The notes below the pieces were generated by a model, which did no database searches, was not told the DNA's origin, and saw only the letters and a list, made by a program, of their open reading frames with translations. This document shows positions 19,968-52,690 of a DNA stretch of 64,000 bases, one piece after another. Position 1 is the first letter of the stretch, and every line of letters begins with the position of its first letter. Both the position numbers and the translations under genes were made by a program. Source of the stretch: a phage; sequence record PX418922.1; one strand, given 5' to 3'.

Positions 19968-20026
19968 ATACTCGCTATCGCTCGACCCTTCGGGGTTAGG
20001 GTAGCATATTTTTTGAAAAAAGTCAA
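19968..20026. repeat. conserved ~60-bp intergenic element, copy A
   Basis: TACTCGCTATCGCTCG + hairpin (CCC-TTCG-GGG) + TAGGGTAGCATATTTTTTGAAAAAAGTCAA; second copy at 52633-52690. Confidence 0.6.
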
Positions 20027-20029
20027 CAC

Positions 20030-20347
20030 TTATTTTTTGGTAAGTAGATAAATCAATTGTTCACCTGCTTCTGGTGCATATAGTGCTTTAGTATCGAAGT
20101 CAAAGAAGTGAGTGACTCCTGTTACTTTGGATGCATGAATAGATAATCGTGCAAGCTTAAGCAGATTATCCATTTCCGCAATCTTTGCACGAAATACTGC
20201 ACGTGTAGCGTCAAAAGCTGCATGTGGCATGTATTTACGATTTAGACTACTACGTTTAAATTTACGATAATCTGCAATGATCCTGTTACGTTCTTTGTTC
20301 AAGTGCTTTACCAGTGCAGTATATACATGTGGTTCTTTGTTAGCCAT
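20030..20347 (-). CDS. hypothetical protein
   Basis: ORF track frame; start moved to ATG 7 nt after GAGGAG. Confidence 0.45.
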   Translation of the reverse strand: MANKEPHVYTALVKHLNKERNRIIADYRKFKRSSLNRKYMPHAAFDATRAVFRAKIAEMDNLLKLARLSIHASKVTGVTHFFDFDTKALYAPEAGEQLIYLLTKK

Positions 20348-20552
20348 TGTTAATCTCCTCTTCATATGTTGGTAGTGCATGGTATACGATCACAGGTGCC
20401 AAGTCAAAATAAAAATGACCATTGATAACAGCTATCGTGCCATTGCGTGTTTTGTTAACTTCACAGAATCCCTTCTTGCCGTTTGCCATGATTACAAGCC
20501 ACTCTCCGATAGGAACATCCTCGGTACCAGATACTTTAATCCATCCACTCAC
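20340..20552 (-). CDS. hypothetical protein (70 aa)
   Basis: ORF track. Confidence 0.45.
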   Translation of the reverse strand: MSGWIKVSGTEDVPIGEWLVIMANGKKGFCEVNKTRNGTIAVINGHFYFDLAPVIVYHALPTYEEEINNG

Positions 20553-20809
20553 TTTACTTCCCCTTTGTAATCGGACACTATACCAGGTCTTACTTTTGCC
20601 TTAAGATGTTTCAACTCTGCCATAGGAGTTGCCACTTGTATAAGGTTAATAATTTCAACCTCGTAGATAGTATACTCATAACCCGCATACTTCCCGATGG
20701 AATGCAGGTATTTGATAGCATGTTCAGGTGAATCTGCTTCAACATACCCCAAATCTTTTGTAGTGCGGCCTTCACAGTCGCCTTCTGTAGTTACGTGATA
20801 AAGTGTCAT
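20549..20809 (-). CDS. hypothetical protein (86 aa)
   Basis: ORF track; GAGGAGG upstream. Confidence 0.45.
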   Translation of the reverse strand: MTLYHVTTEGDCEGRTTKDLGYVEADSPEHAIKYLHSIGKYAGYEYTIYEVEIINLIQVATPMAELKHLKAKVRPGIVSDYKGEVK

Positions 20810-20955
20810 AAAACCTCCTCATAGTAAGGTAAAGCCTTGATCAGTTGTTCTGAAGTGCCATTTTGCACCCACGTAACACCCTTGTCAAGAGAAACATACC
20901 CTTTCTTATTGATAAATTTACGGAGACAACCAGTGAACTTGTTTTTGTAGATCAT
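20806..20955 (-). CDS. small hypothetical protein (49 aa)
   Basis: Read manually; AAGGAAG upstream; stop overlaps next start; overlaps 3' end of 20918-21394. Confidence 0.3.
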   Translation of the reverse strand: MIYKNKFTGCLRKFINKKGYVSLDKGVTWVQNGTSEQLIKALPYYEEVL

Positions 20956-21394
20956 TTCTTCTTTCCTTTTTTAATTTGTTGTGACCTTTACCCTTATAAA
21001 GCTTGTGATTACGAGCAGACGGGTTATTTTGGTTCTCCAGTCGGCTAACAGGTGTATTCCAAAGGTTTCCTGCTACAAAAGATGCTGCCACAAGTTCTTC
21101 CAGGTATACAAAATCTAAAGCAGGTATCTTTGTTTCCCTCATCTCGCGTTCTACATTAGACAACACGCCTTCTTCCTTACTATCTTCTTTTTCAATTACA
21201 GACCAACCCTCTTCCTGCCAAGCTTCCCCTCTGAACCAAGTTTCCATGTTATAACCTTGTTCGTCGAGAATAACACCATCTCGCATCTCAAACCATTCGC
21301 CACCACAAAAATGGCGGTGCTCAACACGTCTACCTTCCTTCATTGCTTCTTTAGCTTCGGGCCAAGTCAGTTTGATGTTTTGGATGTTTTGCAT
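20918..21394 (-). CDS. hypothetical protein (158 aa)
   Basis: ORF track; first gene of the minus-strand block. Confidence 0.5.
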   Translation of the reverse strand: MQNIQNIKLTWPEAKEAMKEGRRVEHRHFCGGEWFEMRDGVILDEQGYNMETWFRGEAWQEEGWSVIEKEDSKEEGVLSNVEREMRETKIPALDFVYLEELVAASFVAGNLWNTPVSRLENQNNPSARNHKLYKGKGHNKLKKERRNDLQKQVHWLSP

Positions 21395-21423
21395 TTGTTT
21401 TCTCCTTTTGTTTGGTAGGAGTT

Positions 21424-21483
21424 GATCTTAACAAGATTAAAAAGTATGTCAATACTTGATCTGAAATTATTTTCAGGTATCAT
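21424..21483. promoter_or_regulatory. divergent sigma70-like promoter pair at the strand switch
   Basis: Minus: TTGACA-N16-TAAGAT; plus: TTGATC-N16-TATCAT ahead of 21509. Confidence 0.45.
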
Positions 21484-21508
21484 GTATGAACATTAACAAG
21501 AGAGGTAG

Positions 21509-21802
21509 ATGATGAACATTACTTTAGCAACTAAGAATATTTCTGAAACAATTAACGGTTTTGGTGTGATTGTAGCCTTGCACGGTAACAATGAGAAATG
21601 GTTGGCTTCTTTTGAAGAGGATCGTCAACACAACATTATTTTAGATGCCCCTATAAAAGTTATGCATATCGTTGGTGAAAACAAAGTGCTCACTTCCTCC
21701 CGTTCAAAGGAACAAATTACAAACGAATTAGTAAAACTGCTTGACAATGTTCTTAACATGTTTGATAATGCACCCATCGACACAAAACGTGTCTTAATGT
21801 GA
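21509..21802 (+). CDS. hypothetical protein (97 aa)
   Basis: ORF track. Confidence 0.5.
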   Translation: MMNITLATKNISETINGFGVIVALHGNNEKWLASFEEDRQHNIILDAPIKVMHIVGENKVLTSSRSKEQITNELVKLLDNVLNMFDNAPIDTKRVLM

Positions 21803-21814
21803 GAGGAGAACCAA

Positions 21815-22099
21815 ATGTATTATTCACAAAATGAAGCAGCAAACATTAAACTGGCAGTTGGCGATCTTATTGTGTCACCTAACTACCATTGGGATAACAC
21901 AGATTTGGTTGAAGTAGTAACTCATGTTGGGTTTGAGGGTGTTGTGCTCTACACATTAGGTGGAGGTGTTGTTGGGGAAATGGAACGTTATACAACAACG
22001 AAGAAACTGGTAAGCTCTTATCGCATGTTTTTACACCAAGGTTCGGAAGAGTATACAGCTTTCTTGTTGAAATTAGATGCAGATCGGGAGAAGGCATGA
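21815..22099 (+). CDS. hypothetical protein (94 aa)
   Basis: ORF track. Confidence 0.5.
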   Translation: MYYSQNEAANIKLAVGDLIVSPNYHWDNTDLVEVVTHVGFEGVVLYTLGGGVVGEMERYTTTKKLVSSYRMFLHQGSEEYTAFLLKLDADREKA

Positions 22100-22455
22100 T
22101 GAAAATTGTACACGATGAAATTCAAATAGAAGAAAGTGACCTGATGGATTTGGATGCAGCTTTGGGGAAGGTAATCTATGCAGGAATTAAAGCCTTCCGT
22201 GAGAAGGCAAACAATAGCACGTTTGTCATGATCCCCACTAAACTGATGCGTGTTTTGTATCCAAATAGAAGTGCGCCGTATACAGATGAAGAAGAGGAGA
22301 CAGGTAGAAGAGAGTGGTTAAATATTTTAGAAAAGATGGAGAATGCTTTTATTGATAGTGGTAATCCAGAAATCGTGTATGCTGAAGATCAAAGGAAGGC
22401 ACGGTTAGAGGGCCGTCTTTTATTCGCTAGTTATTTTGATAATCTTTGGAGCTAA
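22096..22455 (+). CDS. hypothetical protein (119 aa)
   Basis: ORF track; ATGA overlap. Confidence 0.5.
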   Translation: MMKIVHDEIQIEESDLMDLDAALGKVIYAGIKAFREKANNSTFVMIPTKLMRVLYPNRSAPYTDEEEETGRREWLNILEKMENAFIDSGNPEIVYAEDQRKARLEGRLLFASYFDNLWS

Positions 22456-22457
22456 AT

Positions 22458-22634
22458 ATGTCTGAATTCTTCACAATGGCTTTCTTAGGGATCTATCTGA
22501 TTATTAGTGCTGTTGGCTTAATCATGTCTCTAATAGAGGAAATGGGAATTAAGTGGAATTGTGCATTCGGTATAGCTCTTATGCTCACTCCGGTTTGGAT
22601 CTACATCTGCAAAGCAGTTGAACTAATTGGTTAA
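22458..22634 (+). CDS. small membrane protein
   Basis: Start moved to ATG after GGAG; two hydrophobic helices. Confidence 0.45.
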   Translation: MSEFFTMAFLGIYLIISAVGLIMSLIEEMGIKWNCAFGIALMLTPVWIYICKAVELIG

Positions 22635-22645
22635 TAGGGGGTAAT

Positions 22646-22897
22646 ATGATTCAGTTTCAAAAAGGTCAAAAGATGACGGTATACGACGCAAAAGATATGG
22701 AATTTGCACTTGAACTTCTCGAAGATGCAGGTTTTGTGTGGATCAACGGCGGAGAGAAGCCTACGGCTTGGCTTCCACATGAAAAAGTAGTCAACCACAC
22801 CTTTCCTGACAGTATCAACTGGCATTCTGATGGTAAGATTTGCCGTGGAAGTTACCCAACAGGTGTCGAGTGGACCATTAAATTAGGAGGGCTTTAA
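22646..22897 (+). CDS. hypothetical protein (83 aa)
   Basis: ORF track. Confidence 0.5.
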   Translation: MIQFQKGQKMTVYDAKDMEFALELLEDAGFVWINGGEKPTAWLPHEKVVNHTFPDSINWHSDGKICRGSYPTGVEWTIKLGGL

Positions 22898-22898
22898 T

Positions 22899-23237
22899 AT
22901 GTTTAGTAAAGAGATGAGAGACGTAATTGCCACTCTGGTAGTTGATCATGGTGTTGAAGTTGAGCGTCACGTTTGGAAAGATGAGCCTCCTTTCTTTGAT
23001 TTGGCATCACGGGCTAAAAGTCACATGTATCTCCTTGAAGATGATAAGGATTTTATTCTGCGTATGCGTTATGATCGAGAGTTTAGAATTCCTCTTGACA
23101 CAGATCCTGATGATGTAGTATTGTGGTTGGCAGAGCATTTCGCATTTAACGCTCTACATGGAAGAAGTTTTGGTAATGAACGTTGGGATACCATTTGTCG
23201 TAAACATAATATTGAACCAGAATACGGGAGTATGTAA
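22899..23237 (+). CDS. hypothetical protein (112 aa)
   Basis: ORF track. Confidence 0.5.
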   Translation: MFSKEMRDVIATLVVDHGVEVERHVWKDEPPFFDLASRAKSHMYLLEDDKDFILRMRYDREFRIPLDTDPDDVVLWLAEHFAFNALHGRSFGNERWDTICRKHNIEPEYGSM

Positions 23238-23488
23238 TGTTAAGCATCAAACCTAAAATGATTACTGAAGATCAAAAAGATTACATTTATAAATGTGGTC
23301 GGGTGTGGAAAGAATACACTAAAGGTAATGAAGTTATTGTAGTTACGGAACATGCTATTTCTTTATCAGATCTTTTTGGTGATTATTTGCAAGTCATTAA
23401 AATTGGTATTGACAGAGGTTTGGTGCAGGTGTTAACATTATCCCAAGTTGAAGCAGAACACTTAGACAAAATCATTGTCGAGTTCTAA
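23237..23488 (+). CDS. hypothetical protein (83 aa)
   Basis: ORF track. Confidence 0.5.
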   Translation: MLSIKPKMITEDQKDYIYKCGRVWKEYTKGNEVIVVTEHAISLSDLFGDYLQVIKIGIDRGLVQVLTLSQVEAEHLDKIIVEF

Positions 23489-23501
23489 GAGGAGAAAGAA
23501 T

Positions 23502-23666
23502 ATGATCTCTTTAGAATCAATAGCTTTTAAGAAAGGGTATACCGCAGGGTTCAAGTTTGGTATGTTTAATAAAGTAAATCCATACTGTCCAATGACACAC
23601 AAAAAGGAATTTGAAGAATGGGAAGATGGATTTTCTAAAGGCTACCAGGCAAAGGGTTGGTTGTAA
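23502..23666 (+). CDS. small hypothetical protein
   Basis: Start moved to ATG after GAGGAG. Confidence 0.45.
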   Translation: MISLESIAFKKGYTAGFKFGMFNKVNPYCPMTHKKEFEEWEDGFSKGYQAKGWL

Positions 23667-23675
23667 GGAGAGAAT

Positions 23676-23840
23676 ATGATTTTAAACTTCATCATCAACT
23701 TGTGTTTGACATTGGGACTACTCTGTGCAATAGTATCCCCTCTGATTGGTGAATATTTTTCTGAACTGGCGATGTTTATAGTTCTTGGTGCGGCTGTTGC
23801 TAACATGTTTGTCGCTGCGATTTGTATGTTGTGGGAATAG
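23676..23840 (+). CDS. small hydrophobic membrane peptide (54 aa)
   Basis: Read manually; AGGAGAG upstream; below ORF-track cutoff. Confidence 0.35.
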   Translation: MILNFIINLCLTLGLLCAIVSPLIGEYFSELAMFIVLGAAVANMFVAAICMLWE

Positions 23841-23851
23841 GAGGGAAGTTT

Positions 23852-24208
23852 ATGAAAAAATTAATCTTAGCCACATTGCTGGCTACCGTAAGCTTCACCA
23901 CTTACGCTCAAAAATTTGTAGCAGTTAAAACAGATATTGGTAAAGATGTTGTGATCACAGGCAACAAGTTTTACTATACACCTGGAAATGGTGTTCTAGA
24001 AGAGTGTAAAGATGTTGAGGCATATACAGGAAAAGAAGATAACACGGAACGTCCTTTTTATTCGATTATAGCCACTTGCAAAAATGAAATAGTAGCTATT
24101 AAACAATATAAAGATGCCCCTGGAGGAGAATACTTATTAGTCAAGAATATTAAGAGTGAAAAAACTGCAAAGTTTACAGTAATTATTTTAAAAGGAGAAA
24201 CGTTCTAA
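23852..24208 (+). CDS. secreted hypothetical protein
   Basis: Start moved to MKKLILATLLATVSFTTYA signal peptide. Confidence 0.5.
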   Translation: MKKLILATLLATVSFTTYAQKFVAVKTDIGKDVVITGNKFYYTPGNGVLEECKDVEAYTGKEDNTERPFYSIIATCKNEIVAIKQYKDAPGGEYLLVKNIKSEKTAKFTVIILKGETF

Positions 24209-25347
24209 TGAAATACACTATTTTTGGAGATGTGGCTGTTGTAAATAAGGAATATGGTGTTGAAGCTAATAAACTTCCTGCTGGAGTTTGGGTTGTCAAC
24301 TGCGATCCGCACGGTAACTACTCTTTAGTGCGTGGCGAAAGTTTCTCTCTTCCGAACACTCTTTATGGGGAAACTAAAGACCGCGCCGCACATGTTATTA
24401 AAACATTTGCTCGTCGTAGTAAAGAAGGTAAAAATACTGGGGTGTTACTGACAGGCACAAAAGGCAGTGGTAAGACGATGTTAGCTAAACTAATTAGCAT
24501 GTCCCTAATGTCCACAGAAGGTTTAGGTATTCCAACCATTTTGGTTACACAGCCTTACACAGATGCTGGCTTCTTAGAATTTATGAGTAAAATTACAGAT
24601 CGTGCTGTTGTTTTATTTGACGAATTTGATAAAGTGTACGCTAAGAAAGAAGATCAGGAAGCACTGTTGACCTTGTTGGATGGAACAGGAAGTGGGAATA
24701 AACTTTACATCCTAACTAAAAATAGTGGTTATATCTCGGAATATTTTGTAAACCGTCCTAGTCGTATCTATTACAGTTTCAATTACGATAAACTGTCTAG
24801 TGAAACTATGTTAGATTACTTGGATAAGAACTTGGTAAATAAAAAACACGTAGATAACTTCCAACGTTTATGGGATGTTAGCACAGAGTTGTCTTTCGAT
24901 GTTATTCAAGGTATTGTAGAAGAATTGAATTTCTATCCAAAAATGACTTTTAAAGAATGTCTTGAAATGATGGGTATTTCTTTAGGCAACGATGCTAAAT
25001 GGAATGTGGCTTCTATCGTAGCTAATGGCAAAACTCTGAAGGTGAATTGGATCAATAACTGGCACGACTTCACCCCTACTAAGTTTTTGTCGGGTGCTTG
25101 TTCCCTGAACATCTATCTGCAAAGCTTGAAAGATGATGAAGTGGAAGCAATGGAAACCAACAGTTATGTTATCCTGGATGAAGATGGTGATCCACATATT
25201 GATCTATGTGCAACTGCTGATGGTCTAACTTGTGATCTGATTGAAGGTGGTAAGATCCTGGTGATGAGCACTACACCAGGAAACACTCTGCGAGTGGTGC
25301 TGGAGCCTGTAACACAACGTTCCACCACATTAGGTAGCGTGTTCTAA
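24208..25347 (+). CDS. AAA+ family ATPase
   Basis: Walker A GTKGSGKT and Walker B VVLFDEFDK. Confidence 0.6.
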   Translation: MKYTIFGDVAVVNKEYGVEANKLPAGVWVVNCDPHGNYSLVRGESFSLPNTLYGETKDRAAHVIKTFARRSKEGKNTGVLLTGTKGSGKTMLAKLISMSLMSTEGLGIPTILVTQPYTDAGFLEFMSKITDRAVVLFDEFDKVYAKKEDQEALLTLLDGTGSGNKLYILTKNSGYISEYFVNRPSRIYYSFNYDKLSSETMLDYLDKNLVNKKHVDNFQRLWDVSTELSFDVIQGIVEELNFYPKMTFKECLEMMGISLGNDAKWNVASIVANGKTLKVNWINNWHDFTPTKFLSGACSLNIYLQSLKDDEVEAMETNSYVILDEDGDPHIDLCATADGLTCDLIEGGKILVMSTTPGNTLRVVLEPVTQRSTTLGSVF

Positions 25348-25366
25348 TAAGTTGAGATTTATTAAA

Positions 25367-25388
25367 CCCGCTTCGGCGGGTTTTCTCT
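25367..25388 (+). terminator. intrinsic terminator
   Basis: CCCGC-TTCG-GCGGG hairpin followed by TTTTCTCTT. Confidence 0.6.
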
Positions 25389-25422
25389 TGTATGGATATC
25401 AGATTAATAAGAGGAGCAACAG

Positions 25423-26409
25423 ATGGCAGCACCAAAATCATGGGAACAATATAAAGAAGAGTGTCAACCAATAGCAGAGAGTAAGCAAATCCAAATCTTA
25501 GGATGGACGGGAGAATGGAAAGGGGTTAATACAAAACTTGATTTGTTGTGTCATTGTGGTTATAAATGGGATACTACAAGTATTAACAATTTTAAACGTG
25601 GTAGTGGTTGTCCTTTATGTGGATATGAGAATACAAGGAAGGCACAAACAATATCCGACGATCAACATATTGCAGATTTCTTTTCTACAGGGAAGTTTAA
25701 GGAAGGCACTATTTTCACCAATACGGGGGAACGTAAAGGGTGTGATCCAGTATGGATGATTCAGTGTCCTGTTTGTTCTCATGATGAATATGTTAAAGCT
25801 GGACTATGTGATGGTAAGTTTTATATGACGCGTGGCAATCTTAAATATGGATACTTACCCTGCCGTTGCTCTGCATCTTATAGGTATACAGCGGAACAGA
25901 TTACGTATAAAGTAAGAAAGAAAATAGAAAAGAAAGGGTATGTTTGGATAGGATGGATTACCAAACCATCTTCTATAGGTAAGTTTAAATATATATGTAA
26001 GAGTCATGGGGAACAAAAAGGAACTGCAAACAACCTTTTAAACATAGGACAAGGTTGTCCGCAGTGTGCTAACAAAAATCAACAACAAGCCTACATTAAT
26101 TATATTTACGATGAGCAAGATATTATCTGTGCACTGAAGTTTGGTATTGCTAATAATAGTAATCGCCGTATGAAAGAACAAAATAGTCATAATGTGTTCA
26201 CTATGAAACAACACCAAGTGTGGCACTTCCCTACTGTTAAGCAATGCCAAAACGCAGAGAAATATTGCAAGAAGGTGTTAAACACGGAAGCAGTGAGCAA
26301 ATATTCTATGCAAGATGGCTACACAGAAACAGTGGAGCTATCTTGCATGGCATCCGTACAGAATATTTATAAACTTTATGGTGGAACATTACAGGAGGAA
26401 ACATGTTAG
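25423..26409 (+). CDS. zinc-ribbon repeat protein with C-terminal GIY-YIG / T5orf172-like domain, copy 1
   Basis: Repeated CxxC pairs; C-terminal YINYIY-(10)-KFGIA...R; paralog at 42111-43091. Confidence 0.45.
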   Translation: MAAPKSWEQYKEECQPIAESKQIQILGWTGEWKGVNTKLDLLCHCGYKWDTTSINNFKRGSGCPLCGYENTRKAQTISDDQHIADFFSTGKFKEGTIFTNTGERKGCDPVWMIQCPVCSHDEYVKAGLCDGKFYMTRGNLKYGYLPCRCSASYRYTAEQITYKVRKKIEKKGYVWIGWITKPSSIGKFKYICKSHGEQKGTANNLLNIGQGCPQCANKNQQQAYINYIYDEQDIICALKFGIANNSNRRMKEQNSHNVFTMKQHQVWHFPTVKQCQNAEKYCKKVLNTEAVSKYSMQDGYTETVELSCMASVQNIYKLYGGTLQEETC

Positions 26410-26768
26410 TTGACGTTCAAATTATGCGCAACGAAAGAATGGACTTCTTTGAAGCAGTAGAGAAACATCTGATCAGATGGGACTATGAATTTGTTCCTGC
26501 TGGATGTGGACCAGTAGAGCATTTAGCGGAAGACGACGATGTATACATGATCATTCGTCAAGTGTACCAGACAGACCAGTGTGAAGAAACGCCCGAACTG
26601 ATTTTGTTTGAGTGTAAAGATCTTGCAAAATATTTTGACTATGGCGGAAAAGAGGGTCATAATCTCTCCAGATACAATAAACGTCTACTTATCTTAGACT
26701 ACATGCGGAACAACAAACACAAACTCATCGACGCAGACGCAGTTTATGGCTACTGGTGGATGGATTAA
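26403..26768 (+). CDS. hypothetical protein (121 aa)
   Basis: ORF track. Confidence 0.5.
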   Translation: MLVDVQIMRNERMDFFEAVEKHLIRWDYEFVPAGCGPVEHLAEDDDVYMIIRQVYQTDQCEETPELILFECKDLAKYFDYGGKEGHNLSRYNKRLLILDYMRNNKHKLIDADAVYGYWWMD

Positions 26769-26781
26769 CAAAGGAGAAACT

Positions 26782-27920: not shown

Positions 27921-27967
27921 AAAAATTTATGCAGATGGGAATGAGAAGAGTTCTCATGTGGAAATGC

Positions 27968-28046
27968 AAATGATAATGATTCGCATTTAGGTTTATAAAT
28001 GAGATTGATTCTTATTTAATAAAGTAAATGATAATCATTCTCATTT
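27968..28046. promoter_or_regulatory. three Fur-box-like palindromic sites
   Basis: AAATGATAATGATTCGCATTT, AAATGAGATTGATTCTTATTT, AAATGATAATCATTCTCATTT; core GATAATCATTCTC is 1 mismatch from the Fur-box 3' 13-mer. Confidence 0.4.
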
Positions 28047-28304
28047 AGAGAATGACGCGCAGGGGCGGTGTTTGTCTCGCGCTCCCGTGTCCCCTCGCCA
28101 TGTACTAAGAATAACAGATCCAGCCAGGAAAGCAAGCGATTATTTTATCTTTACATTTCTTTACAAATATATAGCGCCCAGCCTACCGGCGATCAACCTT
28201 CCAACCAGTGCCCCTGGTATGTTAGCCCCGCCTTTACGCCGTGGGGTGGCGCTTCCTCTTCTGTATGTAAAACAGTATAAGCCCTATCCCTGGGCTTGTC
28301 AAGA

Positions 28305-37950: not shown

Positions 37951-39529
37951 GCCCGAACAATGTTGATAGATTCCGCCTATGGAAAACCGACACAGAACAA
38001 AACTGAATAAATAGCGGTATCAAGCTAATCAACCATTAAATGAATAACCATACCTCCCAGGGTAACAGGCTGTTAGAGAGCCATTTAAAGCGGTTAAAAT
38101 CGATCAACAACCAACAACAAACCATCAAAAACACCCTTTTACCTCCTTTCTAGTGCAATGATAACCATTATCATCTATCCATGTTTATCTATACAATATA
38201 AGTGCATAATTATAATGTTGATAATAGTTCGCAACAACTAACCAACAAACAACATAAAACAATAAGCAAACTAATCATAATCAAAGGAATAATAGCAAGA
38301 TGATTGATAACAACAAACAATCAAACCATGATGAATACTAAGCAAGATAACGATAACACGACAAAACAACCAACTAACGAACAATAACAAACGAAACCAT
38401 TAAAATAATAACTATTGCCATAATAGTGACTAAATGAAATCATTACAAAACGAATCATTCACAGAGTCATCATTAGCACGCTATGCCGGACACATAGCGA
38501 GCTAATAATAAGCCAACTACACCCCAACAATCATAACCATCGGTGATGGTTATTTCTTGTTACTGCGTAGCTTGCAATAATTGCAAGCGTAATGACGCTT
38601 ACACTTATTGCGCTGGCTTATTATTAGCATTATATGTAATTACCAAGATCATAACATTAGCGCAATAACAATAATCATTGTGGTAATTACGTAAGGAAAC
38701 AATTAGCATGGCAATAATTATGGGGCAATGGGAGGATGATTATCATCATTCCGATACATTGCACACTATGCACATAATAGAATAAAAAGCAATAATTTTG
38801 GGGGCGAAATGTTACCGCCACAGGCGGGAATGTTGAGCACTAAGAAAAGAGATAAACCTTAATCATGGGGGCGTAAATATCCGCAGGATTGCCAACGGCG
38901 ATCCGGTAGGATGTTGAGCATCTTCTCTTAAACGTAAATAAAATCAGAAAATTCTTGATTTATTTTAGTTTTTATGTTAATAAACGTTTAAATAATAATC
39001 ATTCTCATATAAATAATAGTCTGCTTGTCATGAGCGGGATTAGTTGACAATGTTCCGTCATATGATGAAGTTGCCAACCTATTGATAAATAAGTGTTTGT
39101 GTGATTTATAATCAAGTGGCCCACCTTGTCGCTACGTTGGCATAAGCCTTGCATAAGTCATTGAATACGAATGATAATTATTCTCATTCGCATGATATTT
39201 GGGAATTGTCGCTGCGTGGACCTGACGGCCCGAAAATTCGCGTTAAGCACTTCTTACGTATGCGCCATGATTTTTGCCATATGATATTGATTCTATTAGA
39301 TATTCTTGCCATGATTGCCATGAAACAGGGTGTCCCGAAATAATCTTTCCCCGTAGATATTTTGGGTTACTTTTTATACAAGAGTGGGGTGTCAAAAATA
39401 ATCGGTATATATGGGATAATTGATAGGAATCCCCTATGATAATTCGATTGTAATTCCCTGAGATTGATCGTATGATGTTGGTGATTGATGATTGCCATGA
39501 AAGATGGCTAACGATGAGAGGAGATTATC
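37951..39529. other. 1.6-kb non-coding, repeat-rich region with strand-skewed A+C content
   Basis: No ORF of 60 aa or more; CAACAA/ACAAAC low-complexity runs; palindromes; Fur-box-like sites at 38991-39010 and 39169-39189. Confidence 0.5.
38570..38588. repeat. 19-bp palindrome
   Basis: GCTTGCAAT-A-ATTGCAAGC, 9-bp arms. Confidence 0.6.
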
Positions 39530-45068: not shown

Positions 45069-45070
45069 GT

Positions 45071-45277: not shown

Positions 45278-45372
45278 GGAGTCGGGACACCCGACGATTG
45301 GAGCTAAAAATTTTGCGTACAACCCTTTCCGCCCAACAGGGGCGCGTCGGGTAAATAAAGAGGAGAGTTTAT

Positions 45373-45771: not shown

Positions 45772-45781
45772 GGGGGTATTT

Positions 45782-46237: not shown

Positions 46238-46241
46238 CAAT

Positions 46242-46505
46242 ATGAAAGAGACATTGCCAGCAGCATACCGTTTGAATGATGAACGTATTTGGGAGTGGAC
46301 CGACGTTTCTTGTTTTTACCCTGAAATAGTTCAATATTGGCGAGCAAAAGGGTGTGTTGTAGTTATCAACCCATGTGGACCAGTGGATGAAGATTGCTTG
46401 TATCTCGATGGAAAGTGGCACAGTTATTGTCGCTGGCCTTTTGAGTGGATGTGTAAAGAAGATCTCCCAGAGGGTTGGGAGTATCCAAAAGCAAATAGGA
46501 GATAA
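46242..46505 (+). CDS. hypothetical protein
   Basis: Start moved to the ATG just after the upstream stop. Confidence 0.45.
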   Translation: MKETLPAAYRLNDERIWEWTDVSCFYPEIVQYWRAKGCVVVINPCGPVDEDCLYLDGKWHSYCRWPFEWMCKEDLPEGWEYPKANRR

Positions 46506-46506
46506 T

Positions 46507-46869
46507 ATGTCTAAAGATTTTGTTGAAATGTTTGTCAAAGATGAAGAAACTGGTTTAGGCACAGGTTTCATTTGTGAAGAAACCTTTAAACGTGAACAAG
46601 AAAAAGCTATTCTTATGCGAAACTATGATCACGCATTAGAACAATGGAAAAATGCAGAACAAAAATGCAAAAACCTTTATGCAGAAAATAGAAAACTACA
46701 AGATCAAATGGAGTTGTTAGCTATCAGTTTACGATCTCTCATTTTGGCTGTAGAAGATGGTTTTAAAAATCCAGATGGTTTTCCTGTGAGCGATATTGAA
46801 CATGATTTGTATCTTGCTCGTGGTGCTTACTTCTATGTTAAACAGAAGTCTGTAGAAGGAGAGAAGTGA
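46507..46869 (+). CDS. hypothetical coiled-coil protein
   Basis: Start moved to MSKDFVEMF after AGGAG. Confidence 0.45.
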   Translation: MSKDFVEMFVKDEETGLGTGFICEETFKREQEKAILMRNYDHALEQWKNAEQKCKNLYAENRKLQDQMELLAISLRSLILAVEDGFKNPDGFPVSDIEHDLYLARGAYFYVKQKSVEGEK

Positions 46870-47066
46870 TGGAAGAAAAACTGGAACGTATTATCGAGTT
46901 AGCCATGTCTATTGGCTACGACGATTGTTTTCTCCAAACTATTGGAGAAATAGAGAACGATTACGACTCTTGGGTGAAAGAGTTGGAAGAACTTAAAACT
47001 TCCTTGATTGCTGACTTTGCTGAAGCAGAGGATAAAGCAGATCGTTACAACTATCTGTGTCGATAA
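46866..47066 (+). CDS. hypothetical protein (66 aa)
   Basis: ORF track. Confidence 0.45.
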   Translation: MMEEKLERIIELAMSIGYDDCFLQTIGEIENDYDSWVKELEELKTSLIADFAEAEDKADRYNYLCR

Positions 47067-47068
47067 AG

Positions 47069-47096
47069 CTTGACACACGCTTCCTGTATGGTATGC
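47069..47096 (+). promoter_or_regulatory. sigma70-like promoter
   Basis: TTGACA-N16-TATGCT then TTACCAC. Confidence 0.45.
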
Positions 47097-47126
47097 TTAC
47101 CACATCAAGACAATAAGGAGAGAAAA

Positions 47127-47471
47127 ATGACTAAACTTTTGTGCGTATCATCTTCCGTTCCATATTTCACTGTTGGTAAGCAATACCCTGTGACAAATAC
47201 GGACGAGGATGTAGATTACTACTGGATCAATAGTGATGACGGAACAGATTGTGTTATTGAGTTGAGAATGCGCTGCGCCACTTTTGAGGTGGTAACTGAA
47301 AACGTGATGCGTCTTTTCGAGATCCGATATACAAAAGATAACGGCAGTATTAAAACTTATCAGATCCCAGCCCTTTCTATCTACGACGCATGTGTACGTT
47401 TGGGTCAGATTTACGGGGACGATAAATACTACCGTGACGATGTGTCCATTCATGTGGTAGAGGTGGTGTAA
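47127..47471 (+). CDS. hypothetical protein
   Basis: Start moved to MTKLLCV after AAGGAGAG. Confidence 0.5.
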   Translation: MTKLLCVSSSVPYFTVGKQYPVTNTDEDVDYYWINSDDGTDCVIELRMRCATFEVVTENVMRLFEIRYTKDNGSIKTYQIPALSIYDACVRLGQIYGDDKYYRDDVSIHVVEVV

Positions 47472-47472
47472 T

Positions 47473-47745
47473 ATGAATAAAGATCGGTTTCTTTCTTTAG
47501 TCGCGGAAGCTCCTTTTGATGTTCTTGGGGTGAGATTATGGAAAGACAGAAACTATGGGTTAGATGTTCAAACATACTCTCTTTGGTTGGTTGGGGAGCA
47601 CAGCTTAGATGAAAGCTTGTGCATGGGTAGGGATTCTCGTTCCCTCTGTTTAAAGTTCAGAAGCTTAGAACGCGCAAACAAAGAGCAAGAAAAACTAACG
47701 AGGTGGCTAAATGAAAACAAGCGCAAGGTTGATGGAGTTTTATAA
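47473..47745 (+). CDS. hypothetical protein (90 aa)
   Basis: ORF track. Confidence 0.45.
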   Translation: MNKDRFLSLVAEAPFDVLGVRLWKDRNYGLDVQTYSLWLVGEHSLDESLCMGRDSRSLCLKFRSLERANKEQEKLTRWLNENKRKVDGVL

Positions 47746-47932
47746 AATTTATCTAGCATGGATTGATGTTGGTGCTCCTGATGGTAAACCTTTTCGGCGG
47801 GATTGACTTTGGGTCATTGTTTGGCAAACATTGAAGATGTTGTGATCCAAAGGGTTGTTTTAGAGAAAGAGGCTATTTGAGAGAAGACGGCACAATACTT
47901 AAATATAAAGATTAACCACAAAGGAGATAGAT

Positions 47933-48232
47933 ATGCAAGTTGAAGACCTGATTAAAATTTTGAATGAAGCTAAAGAGAAAGGTGCTATCAAGGACTGGAA
48001 ACGTGAAACAAGTGAAGACCTATCTCATTGTTGCCGAGAGTTTTACATCGAAGGTATTGCTGACGATCATTATACTATCGAATGGTATATCAACTTAATG
48101 ACCCTTAAGCACGGTTCATTTGAGATTTGGTTTGATGACATTGATGTAAATGGTTTTCATCCTGGCTATAAAATCGCTATGCAGTTATCTTATCGTAGAG
48201 AAGTTGTAGCACATTTGGGTTTACATAACTAA
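47933..48232 (+). CDS. hypothetical protein (99 aa)
   Basis: ORF track; AAGGAGATAG upstream. Confidence 0.5.
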   Translation: MQVEDLIKILNEAKEKGAIKDWKRETSEDLSHCCREFYIEGIADDHYTIEWYINLMTLKHGSFEIWFDDIDVNGFHPGYKIAMQLSYRREVVAHLGLHN

Positions 48233-48242
48233 GGAGAAAAGA

Positions 48243-48566
48243 ATGCAAGCAGTTGTTAACGAAGCTATTATGAACTTATCCTTCTTGTTAGCTGGTTTAG
48301 GAGGTGTTCTCATAGGTTTGGCTCTTATCTGGTGTATTCGTCGATTAATCGGGTACCGACAAAAAGGTGTTTCATGTTTTGTATCTTACAATTTTACAAC
48401 TGCTTACAGCAATGAAGTTGGATCTGGTAATGCTCAAGCATTTTTACCAACATATCCTCCTACGGTGGAAGATATTCGAAACTTGGAAGTACAACTTATG
48501 GGACTAGGTGATAACTATACATCTCTAGTTATTCAAAATATTTTTCGACTAAAACAGGGGGCGTGA
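48243..48566 (+). CDS. membrane-anchored hypothetical protein
   Basis: N-terminal hydrophobic helix. Confidence 0.5.
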   Translation: MQAVVNEAIMNLSFLLAGLGGVLIGLALIWCIRRLIGYRQKGVSCFVSYNFTTAYSNEVGSGNAQAFLPTYPPTVEDIRNLEVQLMGLGDNYTSLVIQNIFRLKQGA

Positions 48567-48779
48567 ATGAAGGTACATTACCCTCATCCATTTGATCCTA
48601 AAAACAAAGCCGTAATTCTTCGTCAGTGGCAACGGGTTTGTCGTACTAAATGTCCAATCAATAGCCCACACAATGTAGACAAGGACTATCTTGGGACATT
48701 TGTTGAATACACTTACATAGACAAAAACAAGCGTAAACAGCATGTCGAGGAATACTGCTTAAGAGTAGAATGGCTGTAA
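48567..48779 (+). CDS. hypothetical protein (70 aa)
   Basis: ORF track. Confidence 0.45.
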   Translation: MKVHYPHPFDPKNKAVILRQWQRVCRTKCPINSPHNVDKDYLGTFVEYTYIDKNKRKQHVEEYCLRVEWL

Positions 48780-48791
48780 ATAATAAATACC

Positions 48792-48820
48792 TTGACAAGT
48801 GTTTATTCGTTTTGTAAAGT
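48792..48820 (+). promoter_or_regulatory. sigma70-like promoter
   Basis: TTGACA-N17-TAAAGT ahead of the recombinase gene. Confidence 0.5.
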
Positions 48821-48849
48821 GAGAATACAGCAATGGTTTAGGAGTGGTT

Positions 48850-49521
48850 ATGAAAAAGTTTGTTGTTTACAGTCGTCTTTCTAAACAGAAAAAAGGTGAG
48901 GCACAATATGGTATGGAGAGCCAAGAGAATGATATCCGTTACTTCTTAGACTCTGTGCCTGATGCGGAAGTTATTGGTCAATTTTCTGAATACTATTCGG
49001 GTAAGGGCGATTGGAAGCAACGTAAGGAACTGGTTAAAGCGGTTGAAATGTGTAAAGCTACCGGAGCAACTTTATTGGTAGCTAAAGTTGACCGCTTGGG
49101 TCGTAACAACGCCTCCGTAGCAACTCTTCTAGAAATGATCGATGTTAAGATAGCCATTATGCCAGACGCAGATAAAATGGTTATACAGCTTCTGTCTGTT
49201 CTGGCTGAACAAGAAGTTAGAGGTATTGCTGATCGTATTAAAAAGGGTCTTGCTGTAGCAAAAAGCAAAGGTGTTTTATTAGGCAGTGCTAATCCTAAAA
49301 CTGCCGCTGCACGTAGAAAAGGAAAAATGGAATACAACTCTGTTAAAGCAGACGCTTTTGCAGAGACATTCCGTGAACGCTTGGAGATCCTTAGAGATTT
49401 AAATACACCTTACAAAACTATTGCTGAAAAATTCAATAGTAAGAAAATAGCAACAGCACGTGGTGGTAAATGGGATGCTAAAACTGTTTCTCGTTTGTGT
49501 GCCAGACTGAACATTAAATAG
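48850..49521 (+). CDS. serine recombinase (resolvase / invertase family)
   Basis: N-terminal YSRLSKQKK (catalytic Ser region) and LLVAKVDRLGRN motif; start moved to ATG after AGGAG. Confidence 0.55.
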   Translation: MKKFVVYSRLSKQKKGEAQYGMESQENDIRYFLDSVPDAEVIGQFSEYYSGKGDWKQRKELVKAVEMCKATGATLLVAKVDRLGRNNASVATLLEMIDVKIAIMPDADKMVIQLLSVLAEQEVRGIADRIKKGLAVAKSKGVLLGSANPKTAAARRKGKMEYNSVKADAFAETFRERLEILRDLNTPYKTIAEKFNSKKIATARGGKWDAKTVSRLCARLNIK

Positions 49522-49529
49522 GAGAGGAT

Positions 49530-49952
49530 ATGAAACAAGAAAATGAATCTGTAGATCACTTAATCATGCTGTCAGCCCTTTTTGCCGGATGGGACGTATT
49601 TTTTGAAAATTTGTTCAATTCTGCTACAGATGGTTCCGATTTTATGCGCCAGTTTAAACGACGAACTGTTGAGGACTATGCTTTCTATTCAGGTCGGATT
49701 GAAAAAGGTTACGAAGATACAAATACAACACTCACCATTAAAGTTTTAGATGTGATGTTTAGTGTTATAGATGCTATCGACGAAAGTCTTCCGATCCTAG
49801 ACAATTGTAATACGAAAGCCTATGTTTACAAAATAGCTCGTGCTTATGTGTCTGCAAACAGTTGTCTTCTTTCCACCCAGATTGCCGTGAACAATCTTGC
49901 CAACTTGTTTGATGAAGGAGAAACTTTTTATGACAATCGATTTGAAGTGTAA
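49530..49952 (+). CDS. hypothetical protein (140 aa)
   Basis: ORF track. Confidence 0.5.
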   Translation: MKQENESVDHLIMLSALFAGWDVFFENLFNSATDGSDFMRQFKRRTVEDYAFYSGRIEKGYEDTNTTLTIKVLDVMFSVIDAIDESLPILDNCNTKAYVYKIARAYVSANSCLLSTQIAVNNLANLFDEGETFYDNRFEV

Positions 49953-50295
49953 GAGGATTCTTTTAGATTTCTATAATAATTGGTTAGAACACCTCCGGCT
50001 CTTTCCAAGAGAAAGTGGTTACGCTGATGTTGGCTTATGCCGAGGTCTACGTATGTATATAAGTGGTGAATTTCGGGCCGAGCATTCTTTAGCATATTCT
50101 GTTTATGGTATGCAATTAGCCAGTTTTGAAAACGCTGGCTTAGATACAACTTTCCCATTTAACACAGCAAAATCTTTTGAGCAAGAGTGTAAGGAAAAAC
50201 GTTGCATGTTTAATGAAAAACGTGTACAGTGGGTTAAGGATCGAGTTAAACAACTGGAACAAGAGTTGGATTTCTTCTATGATGAGGCAGAATAA
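49930..50295 (+). CDS. hypothetical protein, paralog family A copy 3
   Basis: Start moved to ATG after AAGGAG; family A pattern. Confidence 0.45.
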   Translation: MTIDLKCKRILLDFYNNWLEHLRLFPRESGYADVGLCRGLRMYISGEFRAEHSLAYSVYGMQLASFENAGLDTTFPFNTAKSFEQECKEKRCMFNEKRVQWVKDRVKQLEQELDFFYDEAE

Positions 50296-50567
50296 TGGAT
50301 AGACAAACCTTAAAAACAATGGCAGATGCCACTAATTCCCCGTACTTTGAAAAAGTAAGTAAATTGGTAGCTAAAGCCGCAGAGGAAGGATATTATAACA
50401 TAAACATCCATAACCCAAGTCTTATACTAGAAATGCCAAGTGATAAGAAGATACAAGAGAGTATCTGTGAAGGTATTGTTAGTTACTGGCGCGAGCGTGG
50501 GTGTGGTGCAAACATGGCTTTAGACAGTGCAAACATTGTAAGATATATAAATATTTCTTGGGGGTGA
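50295..50567 (+). CDS. hypothetical protein (90 aa)
   Basis: ORF track. Confidence 0.5.
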   Translation: MDRQTLKTMADATNSPYFEKVSKLVAKAAEEGYYNINIHNPSLILEMPSDKKIQESICEGIVSYWRERGCGANMALDSANIVRYINISWG

Positions 50568-50608
50568 TTTTATGATTCAATGCACTCATATCCAAATTAC
50601 TTGGAGAG

Positions 50609-51184
50609 ATGAACTTTACCATTTTGGGACAATTTACTGTAGGGGAAACATACCCTGTCATTAAACATAATCCTAACATCGCAAACTTTGATAGGATGGT
50701 TCTTGTTGAGGACGATCTGGGTCAAACTTATTCTTTAGATCTAAAATATCCGTTTTCTTACGGCTACGATTGGATCGTTACTTTTGAAGACGTGGAGGAA
50801 AATAAAACAATGAACGAAAAAAATTCTTGGTATTATCGTTGTGAACTGCCGCCAGTAGGTGAAAAGGTTATCTTTGTTCCTGATTTGGAAAGATATTCTT
50901 GGGACAGTTCTTATTCTATTCCTAAAGAAGGCACCGAAGTTGAAGTTATTGCACATCGCACAACTTCGCATGGTAACGATGTAGCAGTTGTTTTCTGGGA
51001 TGATGAAGGTGCTGCTTGTGCAGGTGGCTTTGTTGCAGGTAATTTTGAACCCCTGCCAGATCCTTTGAAGGAGGCAATTTTAGGCGTAGCTTCTTTTGGA
51101 CTCTCTTACACATCTGCACAAGAGATCGTAGAAGGTATTTTAAACGGTACCGTTCCAAACGAAATTTTTAAACAGATTAAATAA
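50609..51184 (+). CDS. hypothetical protein (191 aa)
   Basis: ORF track. Confidence 0.5.
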   Translation: MNFTILGQFTVGETYPVIKHNPNIANFDRMVLVEDDLGQTYSLDLKYPFSYGYDWIVTFEDVEENKTMNEKNSWYYRCELPPVGEKVIFVPDLERYSWDSSYSIPKEGTEVEVIAHRTTSHGNDVAVVFWDDEGAACAGGFVAGNFEPLPDPLKEAILGVASFGLSYTSAQEIVEGILNGTVPNEIFKQIK

Positions 51185-51235
51185 TAGTTGCACCCCGTTC
51201 TGCGGGGTGTTATTGTATATGTAAAGGAGGCGCTA

Positions 51236-51574
51236 ATGTATTACACTGAAGACTACATATTGTATAACTTTTTTAAAGGTTGGTTGAAATGGGCGGAACA
51301 AGCTCCTGTCGGAGATTGTGTTTTTCCTTGGGATTCTCGTCAAGGCTTGTGTCGTTGTTTGGAAGATTGGCTTATAACCACAAACTACAATTCAGAAACT
51401 AAGAAATCTACATCAAACAGATTAAAAATGTTGTTTGAAGAAGATGGTTTAGATCCAATTTATCCTTTCGGTGAGGAAAGTTTCCACAATGGTCTTTTCC
51501 TTGGCACTCAACATTATGATAAAGATCGTGTAGATTGGGTAAAAGAAAAGGTAGCACAGTATGAATGGGGTTAA
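51236..51574 (+). CDS. hypothetical protein, paralog family A copy 4
   Basis: Start moved to ATG after AAGGAGG; family A pattern. Confidence 0.45.
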   Translation: MYYTEDYILYNFFKGWLKWAEQAPVGDCVFPWDSRQGLCRCLEDWLITTNYNSETKKSTSNRLKMLFEEDGLDPIYPFGEESFHNGLFLGTQHYDKDRVDWVKEKVAQYEWG

Positions 51575-51764
51575 GAATTATCACCGCTGGTTAGAAAGCT
51601 ATCTTAAGAAATGTGAACTTGGTGTTCCAGGTTATACTTACGACACGGACGAGATCCTTGATGAAATGGAAGTTTGGTTTAAAGAGCCTCGTGAACTATT
51701 GGAAAACATTCTAATGGCTTGGGATGGTACGGCACAAAGCATTGAAGGAGGTAGAAATGAGTAA
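51561..51764 (+). CDS. hypothetical protein (67 aa)
   Basis: ORF track. Confidence 0.45.
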   Translation: MNGVKNYHRWLESYLKKCELGVPGYTYDTDEILDEMEVWFKEPRELLENILMAWDGTAQSIEGGRNE

Positions 51765-51892
51765 GAAATTGTTTAATATTCGTGAGAATCGTGATGGATC
51801 GTTCTCTGTAGTCAATGAGTTTAATGTTTCGGTTGGGACTTTTATTACTAAACGTCAAGCAGAACAAGTAAGAGATACTTTAAACAAGTAAA
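51758..51892 (+). CDS. small hypothetical protein (44 aa)
   Basis: Read manually after GGAGG; coordinates may be off by 1-2 nt. Confidence 0.3.
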
Positions 51893-51908
51893 TTTTTAAG
51901 GGGGACTT

Positions 51909-52328
51909 ATGTTAGGTAAGATCAAAGCTTTTTTCAAACGTATTGTTGAAGGAAGTCCAACAGAAGGTGCATTAGGAAGATCTCTAACAGGAGAACCGCT
52001 TGCCATAATTTCTATCAGTCGGTATGGTGGATATTCAATTAAACAAACACCTTTAGGTATAGAAGGTAGTATGCTTTCTTGGACAATATCTCAAGTTGGT
52101 GATAACAGGCTTGCAGCTATAGCATTGCTTCGTGGGGAGTATGACTATTGTTTATCAGCGCCTTGTAAAAAGCATCTCATAGAGCACATTAGAGATAGAG
52201 TAGAAAGAGAAGGCGGATACTTCTTCGAAACTAAGAGAAACGAACAAGGAACTCTTGACTTCACTAAGGTTTACTGGGACAATCATACTCGTCAAACTGT
52301 TGAACAACTTCTGGAGGAAAGATGTTAA
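51909..52328 (+). CDS. hypothetical protein (139 aa)
   Basis: ORF track. Confidence 0.5.
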   Translation: MLGKIKAFFKRIVEGSPTEGALGRSLTGEPLAIISISRYGGYSIKQTPLGIEGSMLSWTISQVGDNRLAAIALLRGEYDYCLSAPCKKHLIEHIRDRVEREGGYFFETKRNEQGTLDFTKVYWDNHTRQTVEQLLEERC

Positions 52329-52531
52329 AAGCTTTTGCTGTATACTCTACTGTAGGATTCTTTTATTGGATTATAGTTGTTGTTGGATGTTGGTTGGGTT
52401 CTTCTGTTGTGATGGGAGAATGGTTAACATACAATGTATTTGAATGGAATGTAGTTTGTAGATCATTACTTGTTATATGGACTGCTATTGTTTGTTGGAT
52501 AACTGTTAGTCTAACATTAGATCTATATTGA
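52322..52531 (+). CDS. small membrane protein (69 aa)
   Basis: GGAGG RBS; two hydrophobic helices. Confidence 0.45.
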   Translation: MLKAFAVYSTVGFFYWIIVVVGCWLGSSVVMGEWLTYNVFEWNVVCRSLLVIWTAIVCWITVSLTLDLY

Positions 52532-52632
52532 TTAATAGATGGTAGATAGATGATCATAGTTTATCTACCTTCACTTACGTTTCATACCTCACTATCGTGA
52601 GTAACATGAAACATTATTATATAGAAATCTAC

Positions 52633-52690
52633 TACTCGCTATCGCTCGTAAACATATGTTTAGGGTACCATATTTTTTTGAAAAAGTCAA
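52633..52690. repeat. conserved ~60-bp intergenic element, copy B
   Basis: TACTCGCTATCGCTCG + hairpin (AAACA-TA-TGTTT) + TAGGGTACCATATTTTTTTGAAAAAGTCAA; copy A at 19968-20026. Confidence 0.6.

Follow-up and report, generated by a model that had tools for sequence, protein, structure and literature searches.

The 64,000 nucleotides (nt) of phage DNA analysed here (sequence record PX418922.1; this whole stretch is called the window below) hold two copies of a short intergenic element, copy A at 19968-20026 and copy B at 52633-52690, and the nature of these elements is the subject of this work. Megablast searches with both flanks place the window in the genus Phapecoctavirus, i.e., among the phAPEC8-like Escherichia coli myophages of the subfamily Stephanstirmvirinae, and the nearest records, at 99% identity, are vB_EcoM-P3322, anhysbys, SKA64, and ASO2A. 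From about 21.4 kb to the left edge of the window the genes run leftward and include those for a helicase, an anaerobic ribonucleotide reductase (NrdD), and a tellurite-resistance-type protein. From 21.5 to about 56 kb there are many small early genes that run rightward, and beyond them the genes run leftward again. An initial annotation, made from the sequence alone, had placed the two copies at these positions, and direct reading of the sequence agrees with it. The flanking blocks that it described as shared are also confirmed, at a level beyond chance. The 16-mer TACTCGCTATCGCTCG is exact at 19969-19984 and 52633-52648, with no other match in the window at up to three mismatches (0.11 matches are expected from shuffled sequences, and 0/100 shuffles reach two). 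The 19-mer TTAGGGTA(G/C)CATATTTTTT, exact at 19996-20014 and 52660-52678, behaves like the 16-mer in the search. The upstream homology proposed at the same time (GATCAT...CTACC) proved weak: these letters belong to two larger hairpins, unrelated to each other, where they occupy loops and stems, pairwise alignment gives no extended identity there, and the same alignment finds no homology between the A and B transcripts outside the element. Read on the minus strand, each copy consists of TTGACT, a 17-nt spacer ending in TGn, TACCCTA, 12 nt, and CGAGCGATAGCGAG, which we call the box. The features of both copies, all on the minus strand, are as follows.

20021-20026, minus strand: -35 hexamer of copy A, TTGACT, from reading of the sequence.
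19998-20006, minus strand: extended -10 of copy A, TGC followed by TACCCT; the 17-nt spacer is 20004-20020, and the A at 19997 completes TACCCTA.
19985-19996, minus strand: small hairpin of copy A, ACCC-CGAA-GGGT, from folding; it spans about -5 to +7 relative to a predicted start near 19991.
19971-19984, minus strand: box of copy A, the predicted leader hairpin CGAGC-GATA-GCGAG, i.e., CGAGCGATAGCGAG.
19854-19970, minus strand: structured 5' leader of copy A, with the TATCGTTAGAT motif, a hairpin at 19871-19908, and a ribosome-binding site at 19860-19866.
19656-19853, minus strand: first gene 3' of copy A, heading the leftward block with the helicase, NrdD, and others.
52685-52690, minus strand: -35 hexamer of copy B, TTGACT.
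52662-52670, minus strand: extended -10 of copy B, TGG followed by TACCCT; the 17-nt spacer is 52668-52684.
52650-52661, minus strand: small hairpin or palindrome of copy B, AAACATATGTTT, centred on a predicted start near 52655.
52635-52648, minus strand: box of copy B, CGAGC-GATA-GCGAG, with the closing stem TAC/GTA.
52541-52634, minus strand: body of the predicted non-coding transcript of copy B, with hairpins at 52579-52612 and 52541-52569.

The comparison of these two copies with their relatives started from 16 distinct copies, collected by BLAST, genome scanning, and a pattern scan of IMG/VR; with further scans of IMG/VR and metagenomes, the set grew to 38 distinct phage-type variants. 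TACCCTA and the box are fixed in all variants, both having been demanded by the IMG/VR pattern, and no search pattern demanded a -35. All 38 variants nevertheless match TTGACA at no fewer than four of six positions, 32 of them being TTGACT or TTGACA (TTGACT 23, TTGACA 9, TTTACT 5, TTGATT 1). The -35 is separated from TACCCT by 17 nt in 29 variants and by 18 nt in the other 9. A TGn precedes TACCCT at -15/-14 in all 16 copies, which were collected without requiring TG, and the TG is unchanged throughout the 38 variants. The sequence of the spacer varies among copies while the -35, the TG, and the -10 stay fixed. Hence, the marks of a sigma-70 promoter are present in the sequence, with a -35 at 17-18 nt, TG at -15/-14, and TAnnnT at -10, and the comparative data are consistent with the earlier reading of each copy as a minus-strand promoter and then a hairpin, the -35 being at this distance in 38/38 variants. 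We infer from these features that transcription starts at the elements, near 19991 and 52655 on the minus strand if the usual distance of 7 nt from the -10 applies.

The same comparison points to the box as a structured element. It comprises 13-14 nt and folds with a C-G pair, tandem G.A/A.G mismatches, a G-C and a C-G pair, and a G-N(N)-A loop, and the 2-4 outer pairs covary. RNAalifold predicts the box hairpin on the promoter strand, with three pairs showing compensatory changes. The structure pairs 78.9% of cells, against 30-45% when the partner is slid, and its covariation score is 0.329, against 0.177 +/- 0.036 in shuffles, none of which (0/500) reaches it. One closing pair is CG in 8 sequences and AU in 6; another is paired in 16/16 sequences, including six G.U wobbles that become A.C on the opposite strand. 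The expanded set of 38 variants agrees with this covariation. Because of the G.U wobbles and the strand-specific covariation, the structure belongs to the promoter-sense strand, i.e., to the transcript or to displaced non-template DNA. The loops are GAA (19), GATA (11), GCA (5), GGGA (1), GAAA (1), and GTA (1), and all 38 fit G-N(1-2)-A. The hairpin begins, at its base, 8-11 nt past the -10, which puts it at the extreme 5' end of the predicted RNA. On this comparative evidence, the box is the true conserved hairpin of the element.

A structurally conserved hairpin had also been claimed at the small hairpin, next to the -10, and this claim holds in part. In the window, ACCC-TTCG-GGGT (19985-19996) and AAACA-TA-TGTTT (52650-52661) differ in sequence and both pair when folded, as described. 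All A-type orthologues have the small hairpin with changed sequence (ACCC/GGGT, ACCT/AGGT, CCT/AGG, CAC/GTG). Across the family, it folds in only 12 of 29 distinct versions and is not the defining structure. Its summed energy is -18.8, against -9.8 +/- 4.0 in shuffles, of which 21/1000 do as well, and the reverse strand scores better than the promoter strand. With the predicted start at its centre, the small hairpin would have its 5' arm missing from the RNA made from the predicted promoter.

The order of promoter and hairpin had been likened to that of a set of modules elsewhere in the window. Between 28700 and 37500 there are about a dozen plus-strand modules of the form TTGACA-N17-TAAGAT/TAAACT, followed after about 7 nt by ATAGGGCGG..CCGCC 5' hairpins. 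These island modules, at 28.7-37.5 kb, are the main early promoter class. The likeness of layout stands, and it is the box hairpin whose place the island hairpins (GGGCGG..CCGCCC) occupy, with a -10 and then a 5' hairpin a few nucleotides past the start; their counterpart is thus CGAGCGATAGCGAG and not the small hairpin. Two stretches poor in open reading frames (ORFs) bracket this early-promoter island and carry a 29-nt repeat, TAAATGATAATCATTCTCATTTA, in five copies, three of them in tandem (27967-28053, 38989-39017, and 39168-39196). In sequence, this repeat is much like the E. coli Fur-box consensus.

Searches beyond the window changed the number of copies. The window holds two, as had been reported, and the genome-wide search for further ones found a third, outside the 64 kb, so that the count is corrected to three per genome. 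BLAST with the 71-nt element gave matches throughout the subfamily, and a scan for TGnTACCCT in the whole genomes of 536P1 (Phapecoctavirus) and A150 (Justusliebigvirus, phi92-like) revealed the third copy, which has CGAGCGCAGCGAG as its box and had been missed for that reason. The 16 distinct copies were used to build a covariance model, which on these two genomes gives exactly three matches of 60-76 bits in each, everything else scoring at most 13 bits; the window copies score 71.8 and 73.5 bits. In both genomes the box string is confined to the three family sites. The IMG/VR pattern scan found three copies also in the complete genomes 3300030441_000047 and 3300014004_000001, and exactly three, at conserved positions, was the count in all complete genomes examined, which come from four lineages. 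Identity of at least 99% is reached by the 71-nt copy A in 86 phage records and by the 2.5 kb around it in only 4, which indicates at the sequence level that the element is under stronger constraint than its surroundings. We conclude from these comparisons that the element is a subfamily-wide conserved class of three members, including a conserved non-coding one.

The class is apparently confined to the subfamily, judging from the genomes and contigs scanned. None of 5,426 E. coli genomes has a match to the element, and we reject a host origin. Outside the subfamily, the IMG/VR pattern occurs in about 6 unrelated lineages, against 7 stretches for a mirror-image control pattern of identical composition, and because the control gives as many, we regard these matches as being at chance level. 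Four metagenome matches that lack a -35 were discarded as members of an abundant unrelated repeat that happen to adjoin TGNTACCCTA. The box is absent upstream of the phosphoribosyl pyrophosphate (PRPP) synthetase gene in more distant phages that have this gene. A relaxed scan for variants at the tandem G.A positions returned chance matches among those listed and was uninformative. Rfam gives no match at the gathering score in the window, E-values up to 10 yield only chance-level matches near either copy, and no tRNA or known RNA family was found. The element is not described in the literature that we searched. A different arrangement turned up in about 25 aquatic viral contigs of IMG/VR and in a similar one, L010 (positions 2020-2170): an inverted pair of TATACCCTATCCCCCCCAACGAGCGAAGCGAG in a divergent intergenic region adjoining an ORF of 496 amino acids. 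The flanks of these pairs hold short repeats of the GAGCG type, and the mirror-pattern control puts them at chance level.

The three positions differ in what lies downstream. Copy A starts directly after the stop codon of the minus-strand gene at 20030-20380, and about 137 nt 3' of it there are an AGGAG ribosome-binding site and a gene starting at 19853, which bears out its description as lying upstream of minus-strand genes. Across lineages this position is between same-strand genes, about 1.4 kb into the leftward block, and in four lineages a ribosome-binding site and a gene follow after about 115-135 nt. The ASO2A record annotates the hairpin at 19871-19908 as a minus-strand terminator. The 5' leaders of A-type copies in three lineages (loci L014 and L069, and the window) have the 11-mer TATCGTTAGAT in common. 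It occurs twice in the window phage, on the minus strand at 19935-19948 and 19888-19900, the second copy reading ATCGGTAGAT, and is located in covarying hairpins, within which there is a GTTC-GAA-GAAC mini-hairpin; as an alternative structure, the first copy could pair with the box. Copy C lies in a divergent intergenic region outside the window and faces a tRNA cluster or PRPP-synthetase/NAMPT genes. Genes lie in front of the A-type and C-type copies in every lineage examined. Past copy C come short tandem repeats, GTACT x5 in Phapecoctavirus (where the record has a repeat_region) and ACTAACA x3 in phi92, then some 45 bp consisting of A/T alone, AGATCT sites that recur, and a second promoter (anhysbys, L063:1521-1830; phi92, L003:47901-48170). 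In phage 536P1 it is about 100 bp from the global minimum of the cumulative GC skew (145,883).

The plus-strand genes on either side of copy B are 360 bp apart, and the copy is oriented against them. The earlier suggestion that it faces plus-strand genes and would give an antisense or non-coding RNA is supported by the sequences: copy B has no credible ORF, and five lineages (phi92, phiWec186, Citrobacter Tr1, Klebsiella phi1_175008, and the window phage) have a copy in the same antisense position, between genes and close to where the early block ends. The predicted RNA of 131 nt folds at -32.2 kcal/mol (z = -3.0), and 0/200 shuffles fold as well. Both of its downstream hairpins are kept with changed sequence in the phiWec186 lineage, and the transcript would be antisense toward the 3' end of the plus-strand gene at 52322-52531. 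A coding reading was rejected, the minus-strand ORF of 64 amino acids at 52363-52557 being not protein-like and antisense to a membrane-protein gene. On the other strand, phAPEC8_0059 and ASO2A_058 annotate a coding sequence of 39 amino acids across copy B (52607-52726 in the window), which is probably spurious since the carefully annotated phi92 record has none at the equivalent place. Between copy B and the next plus-strand promoter (TTGACA-N18-TACATT, 52825-52854) lie four iteron-like repeats at 52699-52790, starting with ACCTATCAAT at 52699 and 52730 and with CCTATAG at 52763 and 52780.

Taken together, we think it probable that each element is a sigma-70 extended -10 promoter joined to a fixed leader hairpin, and that the three copies mark three co-regulated transcripts. 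Host RNA polymerase carrying sigma-70 would initiate about 7 nt past TACCCT, and the first 25 or so nucleotides of the RNA would fold into a compact hairpin with a fixed core and a covarying outer closing stem. Copy A would restart transcription of the leftward block of nucleotide-metabolism and replication genes, copy C would head the tRNA/PRPP-synthetase block, and copy B would fire against the flow of early genes, giving a structured non-coding or antisense RNA. Because TACCCTA and the hairpin always travel together, the -10 and the hairpin would form a common recognition point, at which the fate of the three transcripts after initiation would be decided. The hairpin could bind a factor or serve antitermination, it could stabilise the 5' end, or it could be a signal at the DNA level, and it presumably acts in the RNA rather than in the displaced DNA strand. 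By analogy with nut/boxB leaders and with 5' stabiliser stem-loops, its role after initiation is most likely to be read by a factor or by RNA polymerase, which would control read-through of the downstream hairpins and terminators, or the survival of the RNA. In the simplest view, the element is a sigma-70 promoter with a 5' leader hairpin, a layout used elsewhere in this phage. Two features are unusual: a frozen non-consensus -10 (TGcTACCCTA) and a frozen non-Watson-Crick hairpin are coupled without exception, and an antisense copy is conserved.

Several points weigh against this interpretation. TACCCT has the consensus -10 base at only three of six positions, for which reason a simple promoter scan omits both copies, and ordinary promoter function does not account for an invariant TACCCTA. 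The box could be invariant because a non-canonical fold demands it and not because a factor binds; the argument that it implies recognition by a protein is also weakened because the same core recurs in an unrelated prokaryotic repeat (see below). No candidate binding protein and no boxA-like partner were found, an N-like protein not having been searched for. A consistent downstream terminator was not found either, a clear leader terminator being present only in the Klebsiella-phage lineage. The small hairpin shows some covariation, yet only half of it would be transcribed, which hints at a role at the DNA level or on the other strand. The literature searched yielded no transcriptomics or 5'-end data for the subfamily.

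The hairpin and TACCCTA could constitute a dedicated control device, either a nut/put-like loading site that renders RNA polymerase resistant to termination on the three transcripts, among them a genome-scale antisense transcript from copy B that would shut down the early region, or a DNA-level signal for R-loop formation or priming origins at the three promoters; we regard this as possible but unlikely. Such a device would be of a kind not yet described for large virulent coliphages, and with the same core present in a repeat of many bacterial and archaeal phyla, it would be a very general structural module. A more specific proposal, to which we give slightly less credence, is that the box and the small hairpin form mini-hairpin DNA on the displaced strand or the lagging template, the three sites being replication origins or priming signals and the promoter driving R-loop formation or transcriptional activation, in the manner of T4 oriF/oriG, T7, or the G4 primase signals. 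One reason for keeping it is the start-straddling small hairpin, which cannot form in the RNA of this promoter. The rule GCG-N(1-2)-AGC is obeyed in 38/38 variants, with only N varying, and a review reports hairpins of this kind at phage sites of replication and transcription initiation (PMC13037366). The hairpin core also recurs as a DNA repeat in various prokaryotic phyla, copy B lacks a protein product, as origin transcripts may, and the surroundings of copy C are origin-like, with iteron-like GTACT x5, about 45 bp of pure A/T, the second promoter, and the GC-skew minimum some 100 bp away. However, GC skew simply tracks gene orientation and is confounded as evidence of an origin, and elsewhere in the genome the GCGN(N)AGC core is about as frequent as chance predicts (63 observed, 52 expected). 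No comparable block of pure A/T follows copies A and B in the window, although the B copy of the Klebsiella phage has an A/T-rich stretch and there are iteron-like repeats upstream of copy B. The longest ORF does not exceed 1,077 amino acids, which excludes a giant virion RNA polymerase like that of N4, a smaller single-subunit polymerase not having been searched for; an N4-type hairpin promoter was rejected on the same ground.

Read on the plus strand, the element could instead be an intrinsic terminator, in which the complement of the box pairs with the complement of the -10 (GCU..GCUC with GGGU-AGC) around the small hairpin, followed by AUAUUUUUU, and the likeness to a promoter would be secondary or coincidental. 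A terminator scan does flag copy A on that strand (19985-20002, tail AGCATATTTT), where it folds at -16.9 kcal/mol (z = -2.9), but copy B, not flagged, folds no better than shuffles (-6.2 kcal/mol, z = +0.68). RNAalifold finds 7 plus-strand pairs between the two invariant blocks in 16/16 sequences, which would explain why these blocks are fixed; all 7 are invariant, however, and give no support from covariation, and the G.U pairs of the closing stem favour the promoter strand. All B-type copies lie just after a plus-strand gene and have a T-run, as do A-type copies. This T-run is absent from five of the six C-type/X copies and from W_A, which retain the invariant blocks, and the divergent C regions receive no transcript of the plus strand. 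The genes on both sides of copy A are on the minus strand, the annotated terminators of ASO2A are located elsewhere, and a terminator would have no use for a conserved -35 at a fixed distance. We therefore find this explanation improbable for the class; the A-type and B-type copies may terminate plus-strand transcripts as a secondary function. It is very improbable that the box is a double-stranded operator, at which a phage repressor or activator would bind the two AGCGA repeats at +8 to +22 and switch the three promoters together. The box is strictly conserved just 3' of the start, where repressors often act, and has the character of a direct repeat, AGCGA-(T)-AGCGA. Yet the spacing of the repeats shifts by 1 bp between copies (GCGAAGC versus GCGATAGC), which is hard to fit with a fixed dimer on duplex DNA, and the flanks covary as a stem with strand-specific G.U pairs.

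If the promoter-leader interpretation is correct, the cassette is a second and sharply distinct promoter class beside the early island promoters, and its three fixed positions mark off the main transcription blocks of the genome. A conserved non-coding or antisense RNA, roughly 115-130 nt long, is then expected inside the early region. The phages of the phAPEC8 and phi92 types are widely isolated and are candidates for therapy, and their transcription programme is essentially unmapped. Three start sites, one box of 14 nt, and one RNA could provide handles on the timing of phage expression and possibly on the start of replication. The strict non-Watson-Crick fold, shared with a widespread prokaryotic repeat, may be of wider structural interest.

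How does the element compare with known systems? It resembles sigma-70 extended -10 promoters in its TTGACt -35, 17-18-nt spacer, TG, and TAnnnT, and in that copies A and C face genes. Ordinary promoter families drift around TATAAT, whereas here the -10 is frozen as TACCCTA in all copies and tied to one leader hairpin. The lambdoid nut sites, whose boxB hairpin is bound by N, and the HK022 put sites also place a short hairpin early in a few transcripts; there are few sites per genome, heading long operons with hairpins and terminators, and the loop of the box recalls a GNRA loop. Unlike boxB, the stem of the box has tandem G.A mismatches, and its loop has 3-4 nt instead of 5 and another sequence; put RNAs, for their part, are double stem-loops of about 70 nt, and copy B has no operon to antiterminate. 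The boxA consensus (CGCUCUUA-like) was not found, only a loose U-rich RGRUUYU tract after the box hairpin. We made no search for an N-like protein, N proteins not being conserved in sequence. Leaders of the ompA type have 5'-terminal stabiliser stem-loops. As in these and in the island modules, the hairpin starts a few nucleotides from the predicted 5' end. However, stabiliser hairpins need no fixed sequence, whereas 12 positions of the box do not vary from genus to genus and are tied to a fixed -10.

Mini-hairpin DNA (GCGNAGC or GCGNNAGC) is extraordinarily stable, its RNA versions being much less so, and it is found at the complementary-strand origins of G4, St-1, and alpha3, at ssiA of RSF1010, and at the early promoters of N4 (Kimoto & Hirao 2026, PMC13037366). 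The core of the box fits GCGNAGC or GCGNNAGC in 38/38 variants, with G..A loops of 3 and 4 nt, and lies at a predicted initiation region for transcription in a phage. The known cases differ in acting on single-stranded DNA that is read by primases or by the N4 virion RNA polymerase, whereas the box is 3' of a sigma-70-type promoter and has additional tandem G.A pairs and a covarying stem. Promoter-type replication origins include T4 oriF and oriG and the T7 primary origin. Like them, the element has a predicted promoter whose transcript need not encode anything, and copy C has repeats and an A/T block; unlike them, copies A and B in the window lack a comparable A/T block.

A further likeness in sequence was reached through the four odd metagenome matches (L178, L180, L202, and L224), whose contigs have TGTCA/TCT flanks and lack a -35. 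They led to a prokaryotic repeat, tTGTCA-TTCC-GAGCGAAGCGA-GGAA-TCTc, whose 19-mer core TTCCGAGCGAAGCGAGGAA is present in at least 120 GTDB loci (L229-L348), against about 4 expected by chance. Among the matches listed, these loci span Acidobacteriota, Chloroflexota, Planctomycetota, Bacteroidota, Patescibacteria, Proteobacteria, and some archaea, and about a quarter of the copies have an inverted partner some 35 nt away. The repeat has no match in Rfam and is absent from E. coli. It has the same core as the box, Y-GAGC-G N(N) A-GCGA-R, and the same loop alternatives, GAA, GCA, and GATA. It differs in belonging to environmental bacteria and archaea, in lacking a -35 and a -10, and in its own flanks: in TGTCATTCC-GAGCGAAGCGA-GGAATCTC the TGTCA/TCT flanks are more than 90% conserved (130 genomic copies, among the matches listed), and 0/38 phage variants carry them. 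Judging from these sequences, the likeness between the repeat and the box is probably a convergence on an intrinsically favoured fold rather than a sign of common descent.

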